Below, piece after piece: positions 50,324-50,348 of a stretch of DNA of 50,400 nt. Numbering within the stretch: the stretch's first letter is position 1; each line of letters starts with the position of its first letter. The notes below the pieces were generated by a model. It had not been told where the DNA came from. It saw nothing but the letters and a program-made list of their open reading frames with translations, and did no database searches. The translations under genes and the position numbers were made by a program. The DNA is from Escherichia coli (GTDB taxonomy: Bacteria; Pseudomonadota; Gammaproteobacteria; Enterobacterales; Enterobacteriaceae), in assembly GCF_003334335.1 (NCBI RefSeq), contig NZ_QOWQ01000034.1; one strand, 5' to 3'.

Positions 50324-50348
50324 CCCATAAGCGCTAACTTAAGGGTTG
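50324..50348 (-). repeat. 25-bp sequence CAACCCTTAAGTTAGCGCTTATGGG, copy 2 (inverted relative to copy 1 at 55-79)
   Basis: Read directly; abuts the point where the FliI-like reading frame is interrupted. Confidence 0.8.

Follow-up and report, generated by a model that had tools for sequence, protein, structure and literature searches.

IS186, which is the same element as IS421, is an insertion sequence of the IS4 family, about 1.34 kb long and carrying one DDE transposase, InsL. In the reference genome of K-12 (NC_000913), the element bears the annotation 'insertion sequence:IS186A' and its gene insL1 the annotation 'IS186/IS421 family transposase', and the PGAP label for IS186 is 'IS421 family'. 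The target of IS186 has been described as 5'-GGGG(N6/N7)CCCC-3', with rare cores of 4 or 5 nt and occasional deviations of one or two bases (Lee et al. 2016, PMC5009759). The lon promoter is a hotspot for IS186 insertion (saiSree et al. 2001, J Bacteriol 183:6943, as cited in PMC3861542 and PMC3045373). Composite transposons such as Tn10 (IS10) and Tn5 (IS50) are the other described arrangement that comes close to what is presented here, i.e., a DNA segment bracketed by two IS4-family copies. Here, we analyzed a 50,400-nt stretch of Escherichia coli DNA (hereafter, the window), in which a 25-mer is found once near each edge in inverted orientation. Based on the comparison of sequences, we conclude with a probability of about 0.97 that the two 25-mers are terminal inverted repeats of two separate IS186 copies, one between ecpA and ecpB and one in lfiI.

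One exact copy of the 25-mer CAACCCTTAAGTTAGCGCTTATGGG lies on the plus strand (55-79) and one on the minus strand (50324-50348), just as the preliminary description had it; a search of the whole window returned these two copies with 0 mismatches and no further copy with three mismatches or fewer. Its statement that the match is not due to chance is confirmed as well, i.e., 100 dinucleotide-preserving shuffles of the window produced 0 matches to CAACCCTTAAGTTAGCGCTTATGGG, and about 2e-6 pairs of exact inverted 25-mers would be expected by chance in a stretch of 50.4 kb. The placement of both copies also agrees with that description: the left 25-mer ends 35 nt upstream of the ecpB start at 115, and the right one adjoins the breakdown of the FliI-like lfiI frame, which breaks off at 50325/50326.

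Comparison with NC_000913 showed that window 1-77 and window 50326-50400, once reverse-complemented, reproduce the left and the right end of K-12 IS186A, respectively, both at 100% identity. The 23-bp IS186 terminal inverted repeat CATAAGCGCTAACTTAAGGGTTG is exact at 55-77 (minus-strand reading) and at 50326-50348, and the 25-mer is composed of this 23-bp repeat plus two target bases, GG in the left copy and CC in the right. Beyond the repeats, the interior of the element is 100% identical over 54 nt on the left (1-54) and 52 nt on the right (50349-50400); the terminal repeat is all that the left and right ends of IS186 share, and the two ends are distinguishable in the window. One of the options raised from the letters alone, a mobile-element terminus that disrupts lfiI, thus turned out to be the right one, the ends being 100% identical to IS186. 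The features are as follows:

1..77, minus strand: IS186 copy 1, last 77 nt of the left (transposase-proximal) end, 100% identity to K-12 IS186A; the remainder lies beyond the window start.
55..77, minus strand: left 23-bp terminal inverted repeat of copy 1, CATAAGCGCTAACTTAAGGGTTG on the minus strand, by sequence identity.
78..87, no strand assigned: target-site sequence GGGTAGCCCC adjoining copy 1, presumed to be one copy of a 10-bp duplication, in the hairpin AGCAGGGGTAGCCCCCCTGCT-TTATT.
115..783, plus strand: ecpB, which codes for a fimbrial chaperone and is the first gene downstream of copy 1, from the list of open reading frames and the annotation of matching genomes.
49522..50325, minus strand: 3' remnant of lfiI, Flag-2 FliI-type export ATPase, from codon ~178 to the stop, by alignment to the intact NCTC10973 gene.
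50316..50325, no strand assigned: target-site sequence GGGATCATCC adjoining copy 2, presumed to be one copy of a 10-bp duplication.
50326..50348, minus strand: right 23-bp terminal inverted repeat of copy 2, by sequence identity.
50326..50400, minus strand: IS186 copy 2, first 75 nt of the right end, 100% identity to K-12 IS186A; the remainder lies beyond the window end.

Please note that the window holds 77 nt and 75 nt of the two copies, respectively, (77 nt for copy 2 as well if the two shared C are counted), and that whatever else belongs to them, i.e., transposase genes, outer ends, and the other copy of each target duplication, is located beyond its edges. Both copies lie on the minus strand and are thus direct repeats of each other; they look like an inverted repeat with 50-kb spacing because copy 1 shows its left end in the window and copy 2 its right end. 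The weaker similarity that had been noticed in the flanks holds on the host side, where 6 of the 10 next bases agree and a repeat search extends the inverted arms to 35 nt at 89%, and fails toward the interior of the element, where only 2 of the 20 next bases agree. The roughly 10 nt of outward similarity beyond the 25-mer result from the G-run/C-run motif that both targets share. The reading of the pair as two diverged copies of a longer element does not stand, as they are opposite ends of two separate, sequence-identical IS186 copies. The near-palindrome seen in the core is there (CCCtTAAG...CTTAtGGG, a partial internal palindrome of the 25-mer) and belongs to the IS186 terminal repeat.

IS186 is present in 2221 of 5426 complete E. 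coli genomes, at a median of 3 copies and up to 22, and the 25-mer repeat occurs at 8693 places in these 2221 genomes. The preliminary description had named, as a result that would refute it, that the 25-mer is a common multi-copy repeat with no association to gene disruption; the first half is correct and the second is not, given that here the repeat is tied to a disrupted gene. The element is not an uncharacterized small repeat; it is IS186. REP/BIME and ERIC repeats were considered and rejected, since the REP/BIME families of the window differ in sequence and the 25-mer is always within IS186. As a side observation, REP/BIME units are located in the spacers of the Flag-2 cluster at 30512-30631, 36336-36550, 38673-38833, 39657-39695, 41684-41790, and 48569-48666; a 118-bp tandem unit at 36336-36545 has two copies in the window and one more in NCTC10973 and most other close relatives.

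With 75-77 nt visible per element, the termini might belong to short non-autonomous derivatives of IS186, or be solo ends, rather than full-length copies. We consider this very improbable: each visible stretch contains more than 50 nt of IS186-specific interior at 100% identity and one terminal repeat only, 2694 of the 2815 matching records contain 80% or more of the element, and every examined genome with an element at these sites has the full 1339 bp. The elements in SCU-104, 300709, and TUM14664 are each 1339 bp long, identical to K-12 IS186A at 1339/1339 positions, and contain an IS421-family transposase CDS. Full-length IS186 copies therefore remain the preferred reading. The partly palindromic sequence and the intergenic location of one copy upstream of ecpB would favor a host protein-binding or regulatory site common to the ecp and Flag-2 loci, the chance of which we take to be practically nil. 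Only 11 of the 5426 genomes have an occupied ecp site and only one has an occupied lfiI site, and the empty sites of the others refute a host binding site; the 25-mer is always within a 1.34-kb transposase-encoding element, and the supposed palindromic binding site is the end recognized by the transposase.

Compared with IS186A-C of K-12 MG1655, the two copies in the window are alike in their ends (77 + 75 nt at 100%), their 23-bp repeats, and their G-run/C-run targets, and differ in the insertion sites only: both loci are free of IS186 in K-12, and the ecp site is empty in MG1655. Both sites fit the IS186 motif exactly or nearly, GGGG-TAGCC-CCCC at ecp and GGGT-GATCAT-CCCC at lfiI. The core at ecp is 5 nt rather than the published 6 or 7 nt and belongs to the rare class of Lee et al. 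(PMC5009759). No intact GGGG(N6/7)CCCC site was found in the window, as expected with both sites split by the IS. Based on what is known of the IS4 family and of IS186, InsL would bind the 23-bp ends, make staggered cuts in a target that resembles GGGG(N6/7)CCCC, and integrate the element there, so that the bases between the cuts become duplicated. If the two copies are simple insertions, the expected duplications would be GGGTAGCCCC, possibly with one extra C, at ecp, and G(G/T)GATCATCC at lfiI.

Copy 1 was inserted into the terminator hairpin of ecpA, and 37 nt separate it from ecpB downstream. In NCTC10973, the empty ecpA-ecpB spacer is CAGCAGGGGTAGCCCCCCTGCTTTATT, which scores as a terminator-like hairpin directly after ecpA, and the empty site reads GGGG-TAG-CCCCCC. 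The hairpin itself, GGGGTAGCCCCCC (window 76-91; positions 1374-1394 of locus L005), is a recurrent IS186 insertion site. Eleven of the 5426 complete genomes have IS186 here, three in the orientation of the window and eight in the opposite one. In SCU-104, LAU-OXA, and ETEC4085, a transposase gene annotated as 'IS4-like element IS421 family' is found at this place in the orientation of the window. The 10-bp duplication is GGTAGCCCCC in SCU-104 and GGGTAGCCCC in strain 300709, where IS186 is in the opposite orientation. The left junction of the window combines the boundary of 300709 with the orientation of SCU-104; this exact junction is found in 0 of the 5426 complete genomes, and the same-orientation examples differ from it by one G. 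Since at least three distinct junction and orientation types occur, the ecpA terminator is, judging from the junctions, an IS186 hotspot with at least three independent events, counting that of the window.

The ecp site resembles the lon-promoter hotspot in that insertions recur independently at one G/C-motif site and in both orientations; it differs in its location, which is a terminator hairpin between two operon genes rather than a promoter. Copy 1 would split ecpRA from ecpBCDE and would probably be polar on the pilus assembly genes, because no outward promoter-like site faces ecpB (a sigma-70-like promoter reading from the IS end toward ecpB was looked for and none was found).

Copy 2 is located in lfiI, which encodes the export ATPase of the Flag-2 flagellar system, at codon ~178 of 445, just past the Walker A motif GSGVGKS. 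The empty site is GGCGGGTGATCATCCCCAGC; it reads GGGT-GATCAT-CCCC when empty, and in the window GGGG-GATCAT-CCC followed by the IS. The preliminary description had also named, as a refuting result, that the right-hand repeat lies within an intact gene in other strains; in most lfiI-bearing strains, the insertion site falls within an intact copy of the gene. Among the 5426 complete genomes, one, TUM14664, has IS186 at lfiI, in the same position and orientation as in the window, with the full element, a 10-bp duplication GTGATCATCC, and the two gene halves on either side. A recombination junction that truncated lfiI, as had been suggested, is therefore unneeded, since in TUM14664 the other half of the gene is directly across the IS together with the 10-bp duplication.

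Two further changes in the lfiI of the window were found by comparison with the intact gene. The first is a 2-bp (CG) deletion at 49872/49873, which causes a frameshift independent of IS186. Two IS-free strains, 210221272 and OkiPb01694, give a match of the same length as the window here, an indication that the deletion is present in them as well and is older than the insertion. The second is a T>G substitution at 50317, which turns GGGT into GGGG, i.e., gives the perfect motif GGGG(GATCAT)CCCC, and changes Thr to Pro in LfiI. This G is absent among the listed matches from the 5426 complete genomes, whether empty or occupied, each of which has one mismatch. The right junction with G at 50317 is present in the Logan contig SRR1815430_494 and in three further samples; as it recurs in independent public read sets, the G is no one-off assembly error. 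TUM14664 has neither the 2-bp deletion nor the G at 50317, so that the lfiI insertions of the window and of TUM14664 are probably independent. The private T>G may have created a perfect GGGG(N6)CCCC target that invited the second insertion.

FORC_081 (NZ_CP029057.1; positions 245-1582 of locus L007) is the closest complete-genome relative of the right half of the window, and in its lfiI the lesion is another one, namely a TAG that ends the frame prematurely at codon 45, and thus lfiI is inactivated in different ways among close relatives. Copy 2 would inactivate an lfiI with a pre-existing frameshift, at a locus where decay is frequent.

The 50.25 kb between the two copies, from ecpBCDE to lfiI, are colinear with IS-free E. 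coli except for two small indels. Window 700-50325 differs from NCTC10973 in this respect only by a 118-bp BIME unit (~36.4-36.5 kb) and by the 2-bp indel in lfiI, and the alignment with NCTC10973 gave no sign of a foreign or rearranged character of the interval. The gene order is ecpBCDE, ykgJ, yagU, paoABCD, thrW, proAB, phoE, crl, frsA, gpt, pepD, yafPON, dinB, lafU, and the Flag-2 cluster up to lfiJ-lfiI. The thrW gene, a tRNA-Thr(CGU) at 12887-12962 on the minus strand, has no adjoining prophage or island in the window; in the colinear annotation of NCTC10973, its neighbors are paoD and a LysR-domain gene fragment on one side and proA on the other. The arrangement resembles Tn10/IS10 and Tn5/IS50 in that a segment is bracketed by two IS4-family copies, whereas here the copies are direct repeats 50 kb apart that flank ordinary core chromosome, at two independent consensus targets. 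There is no sign that the 50-kb segment ever moved as a unit.

It may be argued that IS186 is indeed present and that one or both copies mark a rearrangement junction (inversion, deletion, or translocation), the DNA on the far side being neither ecpA nor the 5' part of lfiI. E. coli commonly shows recombination between IS copies (for rates, see PMC5009759), the far sides lie beyond the window, and the target duplications of this strain are out of view. The far-side LfiI fragment with the Pro variant was also unmatched in our look-ups, i.e., the Pro-variant N-terminal fragment gave no exact-protein match, either at full length or from after the FORC_081-type stop. The short Thr-variant fragment had no exact-protein match either; only the full-length Thr-variant fragment had one, presumably from TUM14664-like strains. 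Against this, both inner junctions fall exactly at motif-type target sites, both sites are occupied in other strains by simple insertions flanked by 10-bp duplications, the interval is fully colinear with IS-free strains, and the 5' lfiI fragment is fused to the left end of IS186 in 5 public contigs. In one public contig, a neighboring gene matches PF01609 DDE_Tnp_1. Taken together, we regard a rearrangement junction as distinctly improbable and retain two simple IS186 insertions.

Both window edges lie 75-79 nt inside IS186, a near-symmetry that is typical of a short-read assembler (k ~77) breaking a contig at a repeat. The public draft contig BGLD01000077.1, which holds the far side of the lfiI site, breaks off after precisely 127 nt of IS186. 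Likewise, the window may be an entire contig that was cut at IS186, and its edges would then be limits of the source assembly.

The feature is already known, i.e., it represents the ends of two IS186 copies, and it is real but ordinary. Only mildly new are the recurrent use of the ecpA terminator by IS186 and the private substitution that perfects the motif in lfiI. A search for literature linking IS186 to ecpA or Flag-2 turned up nothing specific, and none of the 5426 complete E. coli genomes carries both the ecp and the lfiI insertions. One may go further and picture the ecpA terminator as a natural recurrent hotspot, used independently in both orientations, that could serve as a mutational and possibly reversible off-switch of common pilus assembly, as the lon hotspot does for Lon, together with a T>G in lfiI that invited the second insertion and a 50-kb segment prone to deletion or amplification; as a whole, we hold this extended picture to be unlikely.

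The two loci are correctly labeled ecpA::IS186::ecpB and lfiI::IS186, and no new repeat is involved. With the operon split upstream of the chaperone and usher genes, the strain is probably unable to assemble the common pilus, and its Flag-2 system is defective. RecA-mediated recombination between the two direct IS186 copies could delete or duplicate the 50-kb interval, and such a loss or duplication of the segment, which includes proAB, is plausible.
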